From the IMG/VR virus record IMGVR_UViG_3300045988_006665, positions 1 to 5,750 of that record: DNA of 5,750 bases; one strand, written 5' to 3'. A model generated the notes under the pieces. It saw only the letters and a list, made by a program, of their open reading frames with translations, ran no database searches and was not told the origin of the DNA. Below, in pieces: positions 1 to 5,750 of this stretch; the stretch's first letter is position 1; each line of letters starts with the position of its first letter. The stretch is from a virus. Both the position numbers and the translations under genes were made by a program.

Positions 1-55
1 CTTCTGTCCGAACAGAATCCTTTGGGATAACTTCAAAAGATTCATGGGAGAAGCA
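1..55. repeat. Terminal direct repeat, copy 1 (exact duplicate of 5696-5750); overlap left when a circular genome was linearised
   Basis: cttctgtccgaacagaatcctttgggataacttcaaaagattcatgggagaagca at 1-55 recurs base for base at 5696-5750. The capsid reading frame is continuous across the join. Implied unit length is 5695 nt. Confidence 0.95.
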
Positions 56-1492
56 GACGATAGACCGTGGATGCCTACAGAGACATACCAAGTACCAAAA
101 ATCAAAATTGTGGGAAATCCAAACGAAGAAAACCAGCCAGAAGCATACAAAGGGCCAAAAACGCAAAGCATCCTGGACTATATGGGAGTACCGACACACC
201 TAAACGAAAAAGGAAAAGGCAACGATATTGAAATCAATGCACTGCCAGTAAGAGCATACATCAGAATATGGAACGAATTCTTCAGAGACCAAAACGTAGA
301 TAATCCGGCATGGTATCAAAAAGGAGATGAAGAAGTAAAATACTTCGACAGAGGAGACAACGGATACGTAGGTGAACAAACCGGAAAAGAATACTTAGAC
401 GCATACACAGGCGGGCCATGTCTCCCGGTCTCAAAATTCCACGACTACTTCACATCATGTCTGCCGTATCCTCAGCGCGGACCGGAAGTAAACATTCCTA
501 TCCAGCTGGAAGGAACAGCACCAGTTTATGCAGGCGACAAAACAAACGCAAAAACAAGTTCAGAAGAAAGCTGGAACAATCTAGGCCTATACAACGGACT
601 GGACAGCAGTTGGAGCAACGCAAAAAACGGCATCCGACTGGAAAACAATGGAACATTAATTACAGAAAGTACAAGCGGAATGCCAAACAATCAAATCTCA
701 CTCCACACAAGCCTGTACGAAGCATCCACAGTAAACATCACAATCAACCAGCTCCGGCAAGCCTTTGCGGTTCAGCACTATTACGAAGCACTGGCAAGAG
801 GTGGCAGCCGATACCGTGAGCAGGTGCGAGCACTGTTCGGCGTAAGCATCAGCGACAAAACCGTACAGATACCGGAGTATCTGGGTGGTGGACGCTATCA
901 CATCAACATTAACCAAATTGTGCAGACGTCTGGACAGCAGACCGAAGCAGACACGCCTATCGGCGAAACCGGTGCAATGTCTGTCACACCTATCAACGAA
1001 AGCTCCTTTACAAAGAGCTTTGAGGAACACGGGTTTATTATCGGTGTTATGTGTGTTCGACATAATCACAGCTATCAGCAAGGCCTAGAGCGATTCTGGA
1101 GCCGTAGCGACAGACTGGACTACTATTTCCCGCAGTTTGCAAATCTGGGCGAACAGCCTGTCAAGAAAAAGGAAATCATGCTAACCGGAACGCCAGTGGA
1201 TGACGAAACCTTCGGATACCAGGAAGCATGGGCAGACTATCGCATGAAACCGAACCGTGTAAGCGGTAAAATGCGGAGCAATGCGGAGGGGACGCTCGAC
1301 TTCTGGCACTATGCGGACAACTACGAAAGCATACCGACACTGAGCCAAGAGTGGATGAACGAAGGCAAATCCGAAATTGCACGAACGTTGATTGTTCAAG
1401 ATGAACCCCAATTTTTCGGCGCAATCCGGGTGATGAACAAGACAACTCGTTGTATGCCGCTGTACAGCGTACCGGGTCTGGAAAAGCTGTAA
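2..1492 (+). CDS. VP1: Major capsid protein VP1 (phiX174 F-like), C-terminal portion; the 5' part is at 5460-5695 across the circular junction
   Basis: The frame is open from base 2 (FCPNRILWDNFKRFMGEA...) to TAA at 1490-1492, so the ATG at 44 in the ORF track is internal. It is in frame with the 5460 ORF after subtracting 5695. The joined product is 575 aa, which fits a Microviridae capsid protein. The N-terminal motifs are listed under the 5460 feature. Confidence 0.93.
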   Translation, partial: FCPNRILWDNFKRFMGEADDRPWMPTETYQVPKIKIVGNPNEENQPEAYKGPKTQSILDYMGVPTHLNEKGKGNDIEINALPVRAYIRIWNEFFRDQNVDNPAWYQKGDEEVKYFDRGDNGYVGEQTGKEYLDAYTGGPCLPVSKFHDYFTSCLPYPQRGPEVNIPIQLEGTAPVYAGDKTNAKTSSEESWNNLGLYNGLDSSWSNAKNGIRLENNGTLITESTSGMPNNQISLHTSLYEASTVNITINQLRQAFAVQHYYEALARGGSRYREQVRALFGVSISDKTVQIPEYLGGGRYHININQIVQTSGQQTEADTPIGETGAMSVTPINESSFTKSFEEHGFIIGVMCVRHNHSYQQGLERFWSRSDRLDYYFPQFANLGEQPVKKKEIMLTGTPVDDETFGYQEAWADYRMKPNRVSGKMRSNAEGTLDFWHYADNYESIPTLSQEWMNEGKSEIARTLIVQDEPQFFGAIRVMNKTTRCMPLYSVPGLEKL

Positions 1493-1495
1493 AGA

Positions 1496-1502
1496 AAGGA
1501 GG
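1496..1502 (+). promoter_or_regulatory. Shine-Dalgarno AAGGAGG serving VP2, separated from the ATG by 29 nt that contain a hairpin
   Basis: A perfect AAGGAGG lies 3 nt after the VP1 stop. No other purine-rich SD lies between it and ATG 1532, and no alternative in-frame start exists between TAA 1490 and 1532. Confidence 0.55.
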
Positions 1503-1503
1503 A

Positions 1504-1530
1504 AGCCCGCAGAAATGCGGGCTATTTTAT
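1504..1530 (+). terminator. GC-rich hairpin with GAAA tetraloop plus T-rich tail between VP1 and VP2 (probable leaky terminator or attenuator)
   Basis: agcccgca (1504-1511), gaaa, tgcgggct (1516-1523) form a perfect 8-bp stem, followed by attttat. It begins 12 nt after the VP1 stop. Confidence 0.5.
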
Positions 1531-1531
1531 A

Positions 1532-2347
1532 ATGGCAGGATTAGGAACAATGCTGGCAAAAGCTGGCACGTGGCTTGCAAGTCATCCAGAAGTAGTAACG
1601 ACAGGAATGTCACTCATTGGCAACGGCCTATCAAGCTACTATGGACAGAAAAGCGAAAACCAGAGCCAAGGAAGCAACATGAGCCAAAGCCAAGGCGGAG
1701 GACAAAGCGCATCCATGAGCGAGGGCGGCACAAACGACAAACAAATCATGGACTACCTCAACAGATACTATCAGTGGCAAGGAGGACAAAATAGTTTTCA
1801 AAGTAAGACAAACCGCGAAAATATGCTCATGCAAATGGGATACAACACGTTGGGGGCAATCCAACAAGGAATATACAACCACATCGAGCAAAACGCAGCC
1901 ATGTCTTACAACAGCGCAGAAGCACTGGCAAACCGCAATTTCCAAGAAAGAATGAGCAGCACAGCATACCAAAGAGCGGTAGAAGATATGCGAAAAGCAG
2001 GACTTAATCCAATTTTAGCATACGCACAAGGTGGCGCAAGCACGCCGGGCGGCTCAGGCGCAACAATCACAGGCGCAAGTATGGGAATGCCAGCATCCAG
2101 TGCTTTAGGAGTATCAGCATTAAGTGGCACAGTGCCAAACAGCTACTTTAGCCGATCCGAAAGTAAATCACAATGGTACCAGCTAGCAGAAGCCGTGGGC
2201 AGTCAAATGAGCACAGGCTATAGCAGTCCGGTACAGCTAACCGAAGACCTTCTCAAAACCTATAAACAGATGGAAAATACAGAAAAAACCGTACCATTCA
2301 AAGCAGGTGGAGGAAAATTCCACACAGGAGGAGGAAGAAAAAAATGA
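1532..2347 (+). CDS. VP2: Minor capsid / DNA pilot protein VP2 (functional analogue of phiX174 H)
   Basis: The 271-aa ORF sits directly after VP1. It contains the segment NSAEALANRNFQERMSSTAYQRAVEDMRKAGLNPILAY, which matches the conserved FQE-MS-TAYQR...AGLNP-L core I recognise from gokushovirus VP2 proteins. The flanks are low-complexity and rich in Gly, Ser and Gln. The stop overlaps the VP4 start (ATGA). Confidence 0.85.
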   Translation: MAGLGTMLAKAGTWLASHPEVVTTGMSLIGNGLSSYYGQKSENQSQGSNMSQSQGGGQSASMSEGGTNDKQIMDYLNRYYQWQGGQNSFQSKTNRENMLMQMGYNTLGAIQQGIYNHIEQNAAMSYNSAEALANRNFQERMSSTAYQRAVEDMRKAGLNPILAYAQGGASTPGGSGATITGASMGMPASSALGVSALSGTVPNSYFSRSESKSQWYQLAEAVGSQMSTGYSSPVQLTEDLLKTYKQMENTEKTVPFKAGGGKFHTGGGRKK

Positions 2348-3363
2348 GTTGTTACAAGCCGCTAATCAGGCTGTACAACCCAGATAACAAAGAAGTGAGC
2401 GGGCGGGTATATTCACTCGCCCGCTTTTCTCAGTTAGCCGGGAAACAGCTAAAGTATGAAGATTTGATGTATAATCCGAAAGTTATGTTGATACCGTGCG
2501 GACAATGCATCGGGTGCAGAATAAGACAACGCGAAGACTGGACGACACGCATAGAGTTAGAAGCAAGAGATTACCCAAAAGAACAAGTATGGTTTATCAC
2601 ACTAACTTATGACGATGACCATGTGCCTGGCATGATAGTAAAGACAGGCGAAATCATGCGAAAAGTGCAGTACACATGGAAGCCGGGAGAGAAGCGCCCA
2701 GACAGCGTACAAATTCTGCTGTATGAGGATATTCAAAAATTCTTAAAGCGTCTCAGAAAGGCTTACAAGGGCAAATTACGCTATTTTGTAGCAGGTGAGT
2801 ACGGAGAACAAACAGCGAGACCGCACTATCACATGATACTGTATGGATGGGAACCGACAGACCTAGAAAATTTATACAAAATCCATCACAACGGATACTA
2901 TAACAGCAAATGGCTGGAAAGCCTATGGGGCATGGGTCAAATACAGATAGCGCAAGCCGTTCCAGAAACCTATAGATATGTTGCAGGATACGTTACAAAA
3001 AAAATGTACGAAATAAACGGAAAGAAAGCCAATGCGTACTACGAATTGGGACAAACAAAGCCTTTTGCTTGCATGAGCCTAAAACCGGGTCTTGGAGACC
3101 ATTACTATAAAGAACACAAAGCAAAAATCTGGCGGCAAGGGTACATTCAATGCACCAACGGAAAAAAAGCGCAGATTCCAAGATACTACGAAAAGCAGAT
3201 GGAAGTAGAAAACCCGGAAAGACTATGGAAAATCAAGCAAAACAGGCAAAAAGACGCAATCAATCAGAAGAGACTACAATTAGAGAGCCAAGACTATAAG
3301 ACAGTCCTAGAGACAAAAGAACGTGTAACCAAAAAACAAACGAAAAAGCGTGGTATTTTATAA
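2344..3363 (+). CDS. VP4: Replication initiation protein VP4 (HUH rolling-circle endonuclease, phiX174 A-like)
   Basis: The 339-aa ORF carries CGQCIGCR (Cys cluster typical of microvirus VP4), FITLTY (RCR motif 1), RPHYHMILYG (HUH motif 2) and YRYVAGYVTKK (Tyr motif 3). The SD AGGAGGAGGA lies at 2327-2336. Confidence 0.95.
   Translation: MSCYKPLIRLYNPDNKEVSGRVYSLARFSQLAGKQLKYEDLMYNPKVMLIPCGQCIGCRIRQREDWTTRIELEARDYPKEQVWFITLTYDDDHVPGMIVKTGEIMRKVQYTWKPGEKRPDSVQILLYEDIQKFLKRLRKAYKGKLRYFVAGEYGEQTARPHYHMILYGWEPTDLENLYKIHHNGYYNSKWLESLWGMGQIQIAQAVPETYRYVAGYVTKKMYEINGKKANAYYELGQTKPFACMSLKPGLGDHYYKEHKAKIWRQGYIQCTNGKKAQIPRYYEKQMEVENPERLWKIKQNRQKDAINQKRLQLESQDYKTVLETKERVTKKQTKKRGIL
2397..2428 (+). other. 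Intragenic stem-loop in the 5' end of VP4 with an AT-rich loop and a short T tail
   Basis: gagcgggcgggt (2397-2408) pairs with actcgcccgctt (2415-2426). The core agcgggcg/cgcccgct is a perfect 8 bp and extends to 12 bp with two G-T wobbles. The loop is atattc, followed by tt. Confidence 0.45.
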
Positions 3364-3375
3364 TTGGTGTCACCT

Positions 3376-3416
3376 AGCCCAGTACCTATCAAGTAAAGTA
3401 CTGGGCTTTATCATTC
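3376..3416 (+). terminator. Stem-loop 13 nt after the VP4 stop (probable terminator ending the long operon)
   Basis: agcccagtac (3376-3385) and gtactgggct (3398-3407) form a perfect 10-bp stem with a 12-nt loop, followed by tttatcatt, which is only a moderate T tract. Confidence 0.55.
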
Positions 3417-3420
3417 TAAT

Positions 3421-3470
3421 CGCGCACACACGTACACGCGAAAAGTACACGCGCACGCGTGCGCACGTAT
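3421..3470. repeat. Two tracts of strictly alternating pyrimidine/purine with GCGCAC/GTACACGCG repeats and a 14-bp perfect palindrome
   Basis: 3421-3440 (20 nt) and 3446-3470 (25 nt) alternate Y-R without a break, separated by aaaag. GTACACGCG occurs at 3432-3440 and 3445-3453. GCGCAC occurs at 3422, 3451 and 3461. GCGCACGCGTGCGC at 3451-3464 is self-complementary. Confidence 0.85.
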
Positions 3471-3481
3471 TATAATATAAC

Positions 3482-3502
3482 TTGTTGTAGTAGTAGTAGT
3501 AG
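3482..3502. repeat. Trinucleotide microsatellite (TTG)2(TAG)5
   Basis: ttgttgtagtagtagtagtag was read directly, immediately upstream of the GTTGAAA array. Confidence 0.9.
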
Positions 3503-3505
3503 AGT

Positions 3506-3671
3506 ATGTTGAAAAGTTGAAAAGTATAATTTTAAAACGTTAGAGCGTTAAAAATAAACAAAAAACAATGTTGAAAGATTTGTTGAAAACTTGTTGAATT
3601 GTTGAAAGACTCTGTTGTGCTAAAGTTTAACAATGTTGAAATGTTGAAAACTATGTTGAAAATGTTGAAAA
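3506..3671 (+). repeat. Array of ten direct, same-orientation (T)GTTGAAA iteron-like repeats in three clusters
   Basis: The GTTGAA core starts at 3508, 3516, 3570, 3582, 3593 (GTTGAAT variant), 3601, 3635, 3643, 3655 and 3664. Nine of the ten are preceded by T. Six read ATGTTGAAA and three read TTGTTGAA. Spacing within clusters is 8-12 nt. Degenerate copies lie at 3484 (gttgta) and 3614 (gttgtg). Confidence 0.9.
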
Positions 3672-3686
3672 GTCAATAGAAGCAAT

Positions 3687-3756
3687 CCGGAATCAGCCGG
3701 GAAAGCTAAGGCCGCGCTTCGCTGAAAGTTGCGCCGCGTAGCGCGCAACAGCGGCC
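3687..3756 (+). other. GC-rich island of nested inverted repeats (candidate ssDNA structural signal)
   Basis: ccgg-aatcag-ccgg lies at 3687-3700. An outer stem pairs ggccgc (3710-3715) with gcggcc (3751-3756). It encloses an inner hairpin of gttgcgc (3728-3734), an 8-nt loop, and gcgcaac (3743-3749). The island is embedded in otherwise A/T-rich non-coding sequence. Confidence 0.6.
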
Positions 3757-3940
3757 ATCTAATGAAAAATTCTTCAAAAATTCGAAGATGACGGAAGCAT
3801 AACAACAGTGCTAAAACTCAGTGCAGAGCCAAAATATGCAAAACAAAGAGCAGAAGATTACGCAAACAGGCATCCAGGACTGTACAGCCTGCAAAGAACA
3901 GAAACGGTAAAGATGTACTTTACCAAAAAAGAATGAACCA

Positions 3941-3970
3941 AAGACGGAGTTGACAGCTCCGTCTTATTTT
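3941..3970 (+). terminator. Intrinsic-terminator-like hairpin with T tract, overlapping the downstream promoter
   Basis: aagacggag (3941-3949), a 7-nt loop ttgacag, and ctccgtctt (3957-3965) form a perfect 9-bp stem, followed by atttt. Confidence 0.7.
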
Positions 3971-3978
3971 GATATAAT
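3950..3978 (+). promoter_or_regulatory. Consensus sigma70-type promoter TTGACA-17 nt-TATAAT
   Basis: TTGACA lies at 3950-3955, the 17-nt spacer at 3956-3972, and TATAAT at 3973-3978. It is followed by the SD AGGAGAGGAAGGA (3987-3999) and ATG 4006. Confidence 0.75.
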
Positions 3979-4005
3979 CCGAAATAGGAGAGGAAGGAAA
4001 CAGCC

Positions 4006-4389
4006 ATGAAAAACATCAAGTTCATCAAAGCAGATTACGGCAACCTGAGCACCCACTTCAAAGCAAAAGAGTTCCAGTGCAAAGATAAAAGCGAATATCT
4101 GTTAATCGCAACGGAGCTAATTGAAACACTGGAAAAAATCAGAAACCACTTCAACGCTCCGGTCATCATCAACAGCGGATACAGAACGCCAAGCTGGAAC
4201 AGCAAAGTAAACGGAGCGCCAAACTCCTACCACTGCAAAGGAATGGCCGCCGATATCGTAGTAAAAGGGTACAGCAGTAGAGAAATTGCAAAGTACGCAG
4301 ATAAAATCATGGAGCAAGGCGGCGTAATCAGATACACAAACTTCACACACATTGATGTACGAGAAGAACGATACAGAAAGGGGGTGTAA
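4006..4389 (+). CDS. Zn-dependent cell-wall peptidase, Peptidase_M15_3 / VanY-like family (endolysin-type)
   Basis: The 127-aa ORF has SGYRTP, an H-x6-D motif in SYHCKGMAAD (H76, D83) and THIDVR (H115, D117). This is the zinc-ligand pattern I recognise for M15A/M15_3 peptidases. There is a strong SD. The N-terminus has no signal peptide or hydrophobic segment. Confidence 0.88.
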   Translation: MKNIKFIKADYGNLSTHFKAKEFQCKDKSEYLLIATELIETLEKIRNHFNAPVIINSGYRTPSWNSKVNGAPNSYHCKGMAADIVVKGYSSREIAKYADKIMEQGGVIRYTNFTHIDVREERYRKGV

Positions 4390-4392
4390 CCT

Positions 4393-4497
4393 ATGGCATT
4401 AATCAAAGTCAAGGATCTGCGAGAGGCAATTCAGCTCATCAAGACTGTGCTGGAAAAACTTGACGAAATCTATCACGTCCTGAAGGAAAAGGAGTAA
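4393..4497 (+). CDS. Hypothetical 34-aa helical protein (below the ORF-track length cutoff)
   Basis: The product is MALIKVKDLREAIQLIKTVLEKLDEIYHVLKEKE. An AAGGGGG motif lies 8 nt upstream (4378-4384). The start lies 3 nt after the peptidase stop, and its own stop lies 3 nt before the next ATG. This tight packing is the only other support. Confidence 0.4.
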   Translation: MALIKVKDLREAIQLIKTVLEKLDEIYHVLKEKE

Positions 4498-4500
4498 AAC

Positions 4501-4746
4501 ATGATGAACAAGACATGGAATGTACGGGACCAGACCGAAGAAAACCTCAGGCTAGAGGCAGAAAGGCTATACAAACAGATAGAAGCAGGATACAAGCTGA
4601 TAAAAAAAGTATCCAAGCTGGAAGATGCCGAAAAGCTCATTAATCGAATCTGGATAATGAAGAAATGGGCTAACGACATCGAAATGGAACTAATCAGAAG
4701 GGAGTACACAAATGAAGCACAGGCAGCGGATGCCGGTACGCACTGA
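4501..4746 (+). CDS. Hypothetical 81-aa protein, charged and helical or coiled-coil-like
   Basis: An ATGATG start sits 6 nt after AAGGAG (4489-4494). I recognise no motif and see no hydrophobic segment. Confidence 0.6.
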   Translation: MMNKTWNVRDQTEENLRLEAERLYKQIEAGYKLIKKVSKLEDAEKLINRIWIMKKWANDIEMELIRREYTNEAQAADAGTH

Positions 4747-4831
4747 CAAGAGAATGTTCAACGTAACGGCACGAAAGACGAAGAGTATCAACCTCAGCCA
4801 AAAACCCATGCGGGGCGGCATCAGACTGTAA
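4712..4831 (+). CDS. Small basic protein, gokushovirus ORF8-like (putative DNA-binding/packaging protein, analogue of phiX174 J)
   Basis: The product is MKHRQRMPVRTDKRMFNVTARKTKSINLSQKPMRGGIRL (39 aa, below the ORF-track cutoff). It is rich in Arg and Lys and ends in the PMRGGIRL motif I recall from small microvirus basic proteins. AAGGGAG (4698-4704) lies 7 nt upstream. The ORF overlaps the last 35 nt of the 81-aa ORF in another frame. Confidence 0.65.
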   Translation: MKHRQRMPVRTDKRMFNVTARKTKSINLSQKPMRGGIRL

Positions 4832-4842
4832 AGGAGAAAAAC

Positions 4843-5085
4843 ATGATTCACGGATACTATGGAATCTATGACAGCGTAGCAAAGTGCTACTGCTACATCG
4901 GAGAAAGCAAGAGCAACGAAACCTTTGCACGAATGTGCAGTATCATGGCAAAGGACGAAAAAACGTTCCTGGGCCAGTCACCCGAAGACTACAAAGGCTA
5001 CCATATCGCAAACTTCAACGATGAAACTGGAAGCTTCGACAGCATCGAACCGGAAAAGGTCTGGGAGGGCAAACCGAATGAATAA
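4843..5085 (+). CDS. VP5: VP5-like non-structural protein of gokushoviruses
   Basis: The 80-aa ORF has AAGGAG (4831-4836) 6 nt upstream. YGIYDSVAKCY...ARMCS...SPEDYKGYHIANFNDETGSF fits the pattern Y-IYD-KA...A-R-F...PEDY...G-FD-ETG that I recall for this family. The family name is from memory, not from a search. Confidence 0.65.
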   Translation: MIHGYYGIYDSVAKCYCYIGESKSNETFARMCSIMAKDEKTFLGQSPEDYKGYHIANFNDETGSFDSIEPEKVWEGKPNE

Positions 5086-5473
5086 AAGATATGAAGAGGG
5101 GCGAAAGCCCTTCTTTTCAAATCCGGGTGAAAAACTGCGTAAACAGTACGTCTGGGGAAAAGACGAAAAAGAGAATAAAAAGCTGATTGAGACCGAACCA
5201 ATCGACATTCAGGCCGAAATTGAAAGCTATGCAGACGAATGCGACATCAAAAACATTGTCCGCAAAGCCAGTTTTGACCCTGAGTTCGCAAAAAGTCTAG
5301 TAGACAGCGCAAAAACAGACGAAACGATGGATATAACCGAATGGCCTACCAACATTCACGAGTATCACGCCATGATGGCAACGGCACAGGCCAAAGCAAT
5401 GGAACTGCAGAGGATGCAGGAAAAGGCCGCAAACGAGACAAAGAAGCAGGAGGAAAACAATGAACCGGAATAA
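5078..5473 (+). CDS. VP3: Internal scaffolding protein VP3
   Basis: I chose the start at ATG 5078 (MNKRYEEGRKPFF...). GGGAGGG (5063-5069) lies 8 nt upstream, and the ATG overlaps the VP5 stop (ATGAATAA). The product is 131 aa. ESYADECDIKNIVRKA matches the conserved ECDIN-I core I recall for gokushovirus scaffold proteins. The C-terminus is acidic, and the gene sits immediately upstream of VP1. Confidence 0.78.
   Translation: MNKRYEEGRKPFFSNPGEKLRKQYVWGKDEKENKKLIETEPIDIQAEIESYADECDIKNIVRKASFDPEFAKSLVDSAKTDETMDITEWPTNIHEYHAMMATAQAKAMELQRMQEKAANETKKQEENNEPE
5094..5117 (+). other. Hairpin with GAAA tetraloop just inside VP3, 9 nt after the VP5 stop
   Basis: aagaggggc (5094-5102), gaaa, gcccttctt (5107-5115) form a 9-bp stem with one G-T wobble, followed by tt. 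The architecture matches the 1504 hairpin. Confidence 0.45.
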
Positions 5474-5750
5474 TGAGAGACACTTTAACCAAGTGCCAAA
5501 AACACACGTCAGCCGGACACGCTTTAAGCGAGACCAGAATATTCTGACGACCTTCGATGCAGGCAAACTAATTCCGTTCTACGTTGATGAAGTTCTTCCG
5601 GGTGACACTTTCAGTGTAAACACAGCGGCAATCATCCGCATGACCACACCAAAATATCCTGTCTTTGACGATGCGTACATTGATTTCTACTACTTCTTCT
5701 GTCCGAACAGAATCCTTTGGGATAACTTCAAAAGATTCATGGGAGAAGCA
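5460..5750 (+). CDS. VP1: Major capsid protein VP1, N-terminal portion (runs off the window end and continues at base 56)
   Basis: It is absent from the ORF track because it has no stop within the window. AGGAGG (5448-5453) lies 6 nt before ATG 5460. The translation MNRNNERHFNQVPKTHVSRTRFKRDQNILTTFDAGKLIPFYVDEVLPGDTFSVNTAAIIRMTTPKYPVFDDAYIDFYYFFCPNRILWDNFKRFMGEA is the characteristic Microviridae VP1/F N-terminus (HF..VP, TTF.AG.L.P, EVLPGDTF). It overlaps the VP3 end by 14 nt. Confidence 0.93.
   Translation, partial: MNRNNERHFNQVPKTHVSRTRFKRDQNILTTFDAGKLIPFYVDEVLPGDTFSVNTAAIIRMTTPKYPVFDDAYIDFYYFFCPNRILWDNFKRFMGEA
5696..5750. repeat. Terminal direct repeat, copy 2 (identical to 1-55)
   Basis: Exact 55-nt match to the window start. 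Confidence 0.95.

Follow-up and report, generated by a model that had tools for sequence, protein, structure and literature searches.

A predicted DnaA-box and DnaA-trio module resembling the chromosome origins of gut Clostridia in a gokushovirus-like genome

The stretch of DNA analysed here, positions 1 to 5,750 of the IMG/VR virus record IMGVR_UViG_3300045988_006665 (called the window at its full length of 5,750 nt), belongs to a gokushovirus-like microvirus. Our subject is a repeat array in the intergenic region that follows the gene for the HUH Rep protein VP4 (2344-3363; Pfam PF23343, phrog_942), the sole replication protein detected in the window. A preliminary description of this DNA had noted nine copies of GTTGAAA and one of GTTGAAT, in three clusters and two subtypes, about 140 nt downstream of VP4, and both the sequence and a pattern search bear this out. 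The exact copies start on the + strand at 3508, 3516, 3570, 3582, 3601, 3635, 3643, 3655 and 3664 and the GTTGAAT copy at 3593, the array beginning 143 nt downstream of the VP4 end at 3363. Spacings are 8 nt in the first cluster, 12, 11 and 8 nt in the second and 8, 12 and 9 nt in the third, and the subtypes are ATGTTGAAA (six copies), TTGTTGAA (three) and AAGTTGAAA (one). A count over both strands of all 5750 nt, proposed as a check in the preliminary description, found no GTTGAAA outside 3508-3670; shuffled versions of the window held 1.05 copies on average and 4 at most, and 0 of 200 shuffles reached 9. The true repeat unit is a 9-mer, (T/A)GTTGAA(A/T)N in the window and (T/A)GT(T/G)GAA(A/T)N across relatives, of which the window carries ten in the same orientation with the consensus TGTTGAAAA.

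The array is one part of a module of about 205 nt (3468-3671). Here the preliminary description had the repeats right and missed what lies directly 5' of them in the same unit, namely a run of TAG triplets and an AT-only 13-mer. Read along the + strand, the module opens with this 13-mer, TATTATAATATAA (3468-3480; 13 of 13 positions A or T), a candidate DNA-unwinding element that lies distal to the triplets; GC content falls to 0.15 at 3470-3489, directly beside a block where it is 0.75. CTTGTTG (3481-3487), which together with the preceding AA reads AACTTG, separates this element from the triplets and is an insert specific to the phages. Five perfect TAG triplets, corresponding to DnaA-trios, follow at 3488-3502 on the strand where the repeats read like TGTGGATAA, and the 4-nt spacer AGTA (3503-3506) separates the last of them from the first box. 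Cluster 1 (3507-3523) consists of two co-oriented DnaA-box-like 9-mers adjoining the trios, TGTTGAAAA (3507-3515) and AGTTGAAAA (3515-3523). After spacer 1 (3524-3568; about 45 nt, with a small inverted repeat AACG-N6-CGTT) comes cluster 2 (3569-3608) with four co-oriented 9-mers starting at 3569, 3581, 3592 and 3600. Spacer 2, ACTCTGTTGTGCTAAAGTTTAACAA (3609-3633), is kept within the lineage of the window and replaced by an alternative cassette in other lineages, and cluster 3 (3634-3671) closes the module with four further co-oriented 9-mers starting at 3634, 3642, 3654 and 3663.

This arrangement is that of the basal unwinding system (BUS) of bacterial chromosome origins (oriC), in which a co-oriented pair of DnaA-boxes is followed, across a spacer of about 4 bp, by at least three trios 3'-GAT-5' and an AT-rich region (Richardson et al. 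2016/2019, Pelliciari et al. 2021, Oliveira Paiva et al. 2020). The distance from box to trio is given in the literature as '4 bp on average' or '4 or 5 bp', and the current view is that DnaA-ATP, once on the boxes, extends along the strand that carries the trios. A BUS pair lies at most 3 bp apart, the better box having no more than 2 and the other no more than 4 mismatches to the box of the species; the window pair falls within these limits, with 2 and 3 mismatches to TGTGGATAA and with 0 and 1 to the box found most often in Ruminococcus and Oscillospiraceae origins. Where a BUS has at least three trios with a middle A, on the strand of TGTGGATAA, the window has five perfect TAG. The spacer of a BUS measures about 4-5 bp and is often G/C-rich, and here it is 4 nt long; AGTA is not G/C-rich, and many relatives have GGGC or AGGT instead. 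The AT-rich element beyond the trios is present at 3468-3480. The module thus shares with known systems such as the B. subtilis incC (DnaA-boxes 6/7 with DnaA-trios) and C. difficile oriC2 the box pair, the short spacer, the TAG run and the AT element, and it also shares the further box clusters on the other side of the pair. Polarity agrees as well: in E. coli oriC the strand that gives R1 as TGTGGATAA has the AT-rich 13-mers on the 5' side of this box, in C. difficile oriC2 the trio run 5'-CACCTACTACTATTACTACTATGA-3' is TCA TAG TAG TAA TAG TAG TAG GTG on the other strand, and the + strand of the window has the same polarity as both of these and as the bacterial loci described below. Its location is different, in a 5.75-kb single-stranded DNA phage and not at a chromosome origin between dnaA and dnaN, and we therefore call it a copy or mimic of a BUS, not an oriC.

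To compare the module with bacterial origins we scanned one genome per bacterial or archaeal species with a pattern derived from the phage alone, GTAGTAGTAG-N3-7-GTKGAAA-N1-3-GTTGAAA, for which we estimate about 0.1 chance matches from base counts. The pattern matched 101 contigs, mostly large ones of Ruminococcus, Oscillospiraceae, Acutalibacteraceae, Ruthenibacterium and unclassified Clostridia/Eubacteriales, with some from Selenomonas and Lachnospiraceae. By tblastn, dnaA and/or dnaN lay beside the match in 93 of the 101. Where both genes were present, the match stood between them with the TAG strand opposite the gene strand in 64 of 65 loci, the canonical Firmicute layout dnaA-boxes-trios-AT-dnaN, and in all five loci tested Pfam identified DnaA and the beta clamp DnaN on opposite sides of the match. 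GTTGAAA reached 21.8 copies per kb in the dnaA-dnaN spacer, compared with 2.7 upstream of dnaA and 0.5-0.7 both in the genes on either side and in the remainder of the loci. Beyond the box pair selected by the pattern, the bacterial origins hold clusters of GTTGAAA and GTGGAAA 9-mers whose spectrum is nearly equal to that of the phage modules (TGTTGAAAA > TGTTGAAAG > AGTTGAAAA, TGTGGAAAA), and base frequencies agree between bacteria and phages also at positions that the regular expression left free. The spacer between trios and box is 4 nt in 96/125 phage modules and 90/100 bacterial origins, in a search that allowed 2-6 nt; the box-proximal run counts 3-6 TAG in the module scans, whose pattern itself required at least three, and the A/T-only run within 40 nt 5' of it has a median of 12 nt in phages and 15 nt in bacterial oriC.

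The likeness extends over the entire module: aligned with origins of Ruminococcus and Oscillospiraceae, it is colinear for about 200 nt, with 66-70% of positions identical; the origins that align best include those of Ruminococcus flavefaciens (L164) and of contig L216. The cluster 1 pair has its counterpart at the same position, spacer 1 is of similar length and cluster 3 is colinear. Such colinearity could in principle serve recombination with the host origin, as a homology patch for integration or for a carrier state linked to the chromosome, a reading that we regard as highly improbable. The identity of 66-70% resides mostly in short repeats and is too low for efficient homologous recombination, and no integrated microvirus at oriC was found among the 101 matches, the only microvirus contig being a free one of about 5.7 kb. 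Differences from the bacterial origins are also apparent. Boxes point forward 1170 times and in reverse 45 times in the phages, versus 752 and 207 times in the bacteria, and the CTTGTTG and the (CGCGCAC)n tract that flank the AT-rich element are specific to the phages.

We consider it very probable from these comparisons that the ten repeats are DnaA sites and form a BUS-like module, and the copied unit looks like an oriC BUS together with the flanking DnaA-assembly clusters of gut Clostridia of the Ruminococcus/Oscillospiraceae group. The preliminary description had favoured a protein-binding array of the replication-origin type, with a host factor as one option for the protein, and this part of it holds. 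It had also offered two readings that involve no specific protein partner and make the repeats a by-product, structural in the case of phased A-tracts that curve the DNA and transcriptional in that of decoy -35 hexamers. Each unit does contain a tract of three or four A, and TTGAAA does resemble a -35 hexamer. The array nevertheless gives a single weak promoter-like match (9/12), the sole strong promoter in the scanned interval 3300-4050 lying at 3950-3978, and a by-product would leave the TAG run, the fixed 4-nt spacer and the match to bacterial origins unexplained. Curvature is no longer needed as an explanation, and a by-product of either kind seems to us scarcely credible.

The boxes themselves differ from the canonical ones. 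Origins of Ruminococcus, Oscillospiraceae and Acutalibacteraceae use TGTTGAAAA (5'-TTTTCAACA-3') in place of TTATCCACA; examples among the bacterial loci L134 to L234 are L164 (6520-6765) and L170 (2472-2715). In E. coli DnaA, the domain IV residues D433 and L438 have been reported to read the box, and R399, P423, H434, T435 and H439 are said to do so in the 2003 structure of Fujikawa and co-workers. At E. coli positions 399/423/433/434/435/438/439, the DnaA of genomes with GTTGAA-rich origins reads R-x-D-H-S-V-Y, whereas that of Selenomonas and Limosilactobacillus, which have canonical boxes, keeps R-P-D-H-T-L-H. Summed over loci and not corrected for phylogeny, genomes with Y439 hold 375 GTTGAA and 66 GTGGA boxes, those with H439 5 and 54, and Y439 usually comes with S435, V438 and a replaced P423. 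TGTTGAAAA thus appears to be a lineage-specific DnaA-box variant that covaries with the DnaA changes P423x, T435S, L438V and H439Y, and the variant points to that lineage as the host group of the phage. Spo0A boxes (TGTCGAA) were considered as another identity for the repeats and rejected, position 4 being T or G and almost never C.

The module is widely conserved among microviruses. Over the 308 nt that directly follow VP4 (3364-3671), nucleotide identity is about 80% in more than 60 gokushovirus records of GenBank, taken from gut samples of human, pig, monkey and other origin. Among them are records in which nucleotide comparison with the window finds no match in the genes, and similarity to other microviruses ends at 3670-3673, that is, at the array end. 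The module is present in more than 150 microvirus genomes of IMG/VR. As read from a dozen GenBank records and then from these IMG/VR genomes, its order is fixed: an AT-only stretch, CTTGTTG, TAG nnG TAG TAG TAG, a 4-nt spacer, the 9-mer pair, a spacer of about 45-50 nt, four 9-mers, a spacer of 25-37 nt and three or four 9-mers. Motif and layout are kept in related microviruses, the comparison that the preliminary description had asked for. The pair next to the trios is usually TGTGGAAAA followed by GTTGAAAA in relatives, and TGTGGAAAA at the homologous box position fits the DnaA-box consensus TTWTNCACA without mismatch. Nine relatives have TGTGGATAA, the reverse complement of TTATCCACA and a perfect DnaA-box consensus, at the homologue of box 3581, and some carry an inverted TTTTCCACA just after cluster 3. 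CTTGTTG occurs in 119/125 microvirus modules versus 0/100 bacterial origins (118/125 phage modules when the scan pattern did not require it). Trios accompany all evaluable microvirus arrays from a scan for boxes only.

Neither the Rep protein nor the orientation of the genes constrains the module. It is common to clades whose VP4 is about 36% and whose VP1 is about 38% identical to those of the window, and the boxes are unchanged across microviruses with VP4 identities of 35-100%. Among 153 complete-size microvirus genomes, 37 from at least three lineages have it inverted relative to the genes. In MG945388 (L004, 1500-1700) and four other genomes only the module of about 200 nt, from the AT-rich element to the last box, is flipped and the flanks are unchanged, and in a distant clade it lies about 70 nt upstream of VP4 and points away from it. 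Sharing between distant clades together with this frequent inversion fits a self-contained element that acts on double-stranded DNA by way of a host factor.

These observations bear directly on the analogy drawn in the preliminary description, that the repeats are iterons for VP4 beside an origin hairpin. As sites specific to VP4 they would position the protein at a rolling-circle origin, in the manner of geminiviruses, other circular Rep-encoding single-stranded (CRESS) DNA viruses and rolling-circle-replicating (RCR) plasmids. The likeness is real in that those systems also have short direct repeats in an intergenic region near the Rep gene, here following it and phased close to the helical turn, and the CTTGTTG next to the trios recurs inside cluster 2. 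Iterons of that kind, however, covary with Rep, flank the nick stem-loop in a fixed orientation and are absent from the host origin, and the module fails on all three counts: the boxes do not covary with Rep, their orientation to the genes and to a conserved hairpin is not fixed (the nearest such hairpin, 3376-3407, being about 100 nt away), and the same 9-mers in the same layout fill the dnaA-dnaN regions of bacterial chromosomes. Viral contigs that greatly exceed microviruses in size likewise contain non-coding GTTGAAA arrays. The iteron analogy therefore falls, and we hold VP4-specific repeats to be very unlikely.

Some further features of the microvirus set concern the array and the scans. 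Natural variants include L269, which has lost spacer 1 and most of cluster 2, and L264, in which unrelated sequence replaces cluster 3; not all ten boxes are indispensable. An assembly chimera was rejected as the source of the module, which has phage-specific features and occurs in independent studies and samples. Four larger contigs from the first IMG/VR scan proved to be chance matches in coding repeats rich in Ser/Thr, and an apparent duplication in L117 is the terminal redundancy of a circular contig.

What the module does can be approached through the systems that it resembles. On comparative grounds we think it likely that boxes, trios, spacer and AT 13-mer together are a phage-borne copy or close mimic of the host's origin-opening module, used to start phage DNA synthesis; taken by itself, a role in initiating or boosting phage replication has the better part of our confidence, if by a smaller measure. 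Host DnaA-ATP would bind the ten boxes on the double-stranded replicative form, oligomerise from the trio-proximal pair onto the TAG strand and melt the AT-rich 13-mer, and the resulting bubble would serve to start phage synthesis. This could occur through DnaA-dependent loading of the host helicase and replisome and/or through an offer of single-stranded DNA to the HUH nuclease VP4 at AACTTG, on the edge of the bubble. In Firmicutes the helicase is loaded via DnaD, DnaB and DnaI. With boxes that suit the DnaA of one particular lineage, the module should also link the phage to hosts of that group.

The nearest precedent among mobile elements is found in the theta origins of plasmids and phages that combine host DnaA-boxes with an initiator of their own, such as P1 oriR, pSC101, F and RK2 oriV. 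There too a mobile element recruits host DnaA via boxes beside an AT-rich opening region. These origins have one to few boxes and iterons for their own initiator, whereas the module comprises the whole host unit and the window offers a HUH nuclease only; no second repeat family was found in the intergenic region, as an element-encoded theta initiator with its own iterons would have. To our knowledge, a run of DnaA-trios has not been described in origins of the P1, pSC101, F or RK2 type.

Dense DnaA-boxes outside an origin are also found at titration loci such as E. coli datA and the B. subtilis box clusters, which raises the possibility that the boxes bind host DnaA for a purpose other than starting phage replication. 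As a sink, multicopy replicative forms would soak up DnaA and block or deregulate host initiation; as a sensor, DnaA occupancy would report the growth state of the host and tune phage gene expression. With ten boxes in one orientation on every genome copy, the sink would be large; the number of boxes shows natural variation, as in L269 and L264, and other viral contigs have GTTGAAA arrays without trios. Titration, however, needs boxes alone, and at titration loci these are not accompanied by trios and an unwinding element arranged as in an origin, whereas trios, 4-nt spacer and AT element are kept in canonical geometry in all evaluable microvirus arrays. Conservation of this geometry beyond the boxes points to duplex opening. 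Also against this reading, the array of the window lies about 280 nt upstream of the sole strong promoter of the scanned interval and takes other positions and orientations in other lineages. We judge a sink or sensor unlikely as the purpose of the module, and titration could be a side effect of it.

Whether VP4 cuts within the module is a separate matter. The phiX174 cleavage site is CAACTTG|ATA, within a 30-bp origin that begins CAACTTG|ATATTAATAAC. On the + strand of the window AACTTG occurs at 3479 (to 3484), 3588 and 4457, the last inside a small ORF, and the CTTGTTG motif recurs in cluster 2 as AACTTGTTGAA at 3588. The window has no match to the 30-bp phiX174 origin, and the array has no counterpart in phiX174. 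The likeness of AACTTG to the phiX174 site and its place at the edge of a bubble opened by DnaA make a role as VP4 nick site attractive, and we regard CTTGTTG/AACTTG as a possible one. The candidate sites are AACTTGTTGTAG, on the AACTTG side, and the loop (3386-3397) of a conserved hairpin, on either strand. This hairpin, with a 10-bp stem (3376-3385 / 3398-3407), follows GGTGTCACC directly after the VP4 stop, the element as a whole spanning 3366-3407. Across lineages the stem varies in sequence but stays paired through compensating changes, (T)ATCAAG or ACAAGG is retained in the loop, and the hairpin keeps one orientation relative to the genes, also in genomes with an inverted origin-like module. 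Reverse-complemented, the loop gives ACTTGATAG; on the antisense strand CTTGATAG (or CTTGTC) resembles the phiX174/pC194 nick motif CTTG|ATA, making the loop a competing candidate nick site. The hairpin could be a terminator, a complementary-strand origin or a Rep site. In SpV4 (L283, 1640-1648) AACTTGATA, the core of the phiX174 cleavage site, stands on the coding strand inside apparently coding sequence, which hints that gokushovirus Reps may cut a phiX-like motif.

Several points weigh against a DnaA-dependent start of phage synthesis at the module. It is not evident why a phage that replicates by rolling circle and encodes a HUH initiator should need DnaA, and the dnaA-dnaN part of the B. 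subtilis origin alone is not known to support plasmid replication, so that autonomous theta replication from the module is not a given. The classical gokushoviruses Chp2, phiMH2K and SpV4 are without the module, which is thus not a trait of the whole family. With regard to the boxes, TGTTGAAAA departs from TTATCCACA at two positions, one of them position 6, which is kept as C in the stricter TTWTNCACA; the proposed binding of DnaA to TGTTGAAAA draws on genomic position and on covariation uncorrected for phylogeny, and the bacterial set, having been chosen with a phage-derived pattern, does not speak to how general the box variant is. Finally, coding strands show an A>T skew of +0.34 to +0.37 whichever way the module points, with no flip, which argues weakly against the module carrying a strand-specific nick site or setting the polarity of the rolling circle.

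Microviridae serve as the textbook case of rolling-circle phages, whose replication is attributed to a HUH initiator of their own and to host elongation factors. The presence of the module in well over 100 gut microviruses would imply a second step, dependent on the host initiator, in replication or in host takeover. One tentative possibility, to which we give considerably less weight than to a role in starting synthesis, is that gut microviruses of Ruminococcus and Oscillospiraceae captured the origin module of their host and that their double-stranded form replicates as a theta mini-chromosome, dependent on DnaA and gated by the cell cycle, possibly as a plasmid-like carrier, with VP4 only spinning off strands for packaging. 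If this were true, the module would set host range, as it must match the lineage-specific DnaA, and BUS-like modules in tailed-phage contigs would mean that origin capture by phages is widespread. More generally the module offers a sequence-based clue to the hosts (Ruminococcus/Oscillospiraceae) of abundant uncultured phages of the human and animal gut. It also draws attention to TTTTCAACA as a DnaA-box variant of one lineage, covarying with changes in the recognition helix of DnaA, and could supply genetic tools for poorly tractable gut Clostridia with a compact, portable origin.

The preliminary description was not aware of such arrays in Microviridae, and we likewise found no description of a DnaA-box or oriC-like module in this family in the searchable literature, outside of which most subscription journals lie. 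For phage-borne 'oriC-like' DnaA-boxes or DnaA-trios on bacteriophages no relevant paper was found, mostly as judged by title and abstract. A 2024 review discusses DnaA-trios for chromosomes only, and the module would extend this unwinding system to mobile elements.

Larger viral contigs carry related arrangements. A scan for the canonical type (TAGTAGTAG, 3-5 nt, TGTGGAWAA) found, apart from the microviruses, larger contigs with an AT-rich run, 3-6 TAG, a 3-5 nt spacer and a canonical TGTGGATAA, with more boxes downstream in most. Six that were sampled (L399, L425, L391, L377, L386 and L363) have phage genes nearby, including a RecE-like exonuclease, a Holliday-junction resolvase and an ATPase, and neither dnaA nor dnaN was detected near the BUS-like modules of these larger contigs; capture of origin modules may thus not be limited to microviruses. 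Contigs of about 95 kb in the same scan gave a chance match within coding sequence and were set aside. Non-coding GTTGAAA arrays without a TAG run stand in several larger viral contigs and may be DnaA-box clusters at the origins of other phages of the same host group. Two contigs labelled viral, L343 and L237, have what look like origins of the bacterial type.

The remaining parts of the window are those of a gokushovirus-like microvirus. The gene for the major capsid protein VP1 (44-1492) probably starts at 5671 across the window ends, where its frame is open (ATG at 5671, 523 aa), so that the window looks like a complete circular genome opened inside VP1. It is followed by the genes for the pilot protein VP2 (1532-2347) and VP4 and, beyond the intergenic region, by those for an M15 peptidase (4006-4389), VP5 (4843-5085) and the scaffold protein VP3 (4925-5473). 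Between the post-VP4 hairpin and the module an alternating purine-pyrimidine, GC-rich tract (3420-3467; CGCGCAC-type repeats, up to 75% GC) abuts the AT-only 13-mer. This tract is present in most related microviruses and absent from bacterial origins, lies outside the invertible module in L004, and may focus supercoil-driven melting or form Z-DNA. Directly after the array follows a GC-rich, hairpin-prone element, GGCCGCGCTTCGCTGAAAGTTGCGCCGCGTAGCGCGCAACAGCGGCC (3672-3760), at the equivalent of which other lineages have a different GC-rich cassette (…GGCCAATAGAGCAGGGTGAGC…CCTAGGAAA); an Rfam scan of the window returned no family match in the intergenic region, this element included. Two small ORFs are found further downstream. 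The one at 4394-4498 (34 aa) lies between the peptidase gene and the next ORF, and that at 3808-3936 (42 aa, GTG start) is homologous to ATG-started small ORFs in two relatives and has no upstream ATG here. Just before the peptidase gene, the strong promoter at 3950-3978 is a perfect 12/12 sigma-70 match with an extended -10 and overlaps a terminator-like hairpin (3941-3965).

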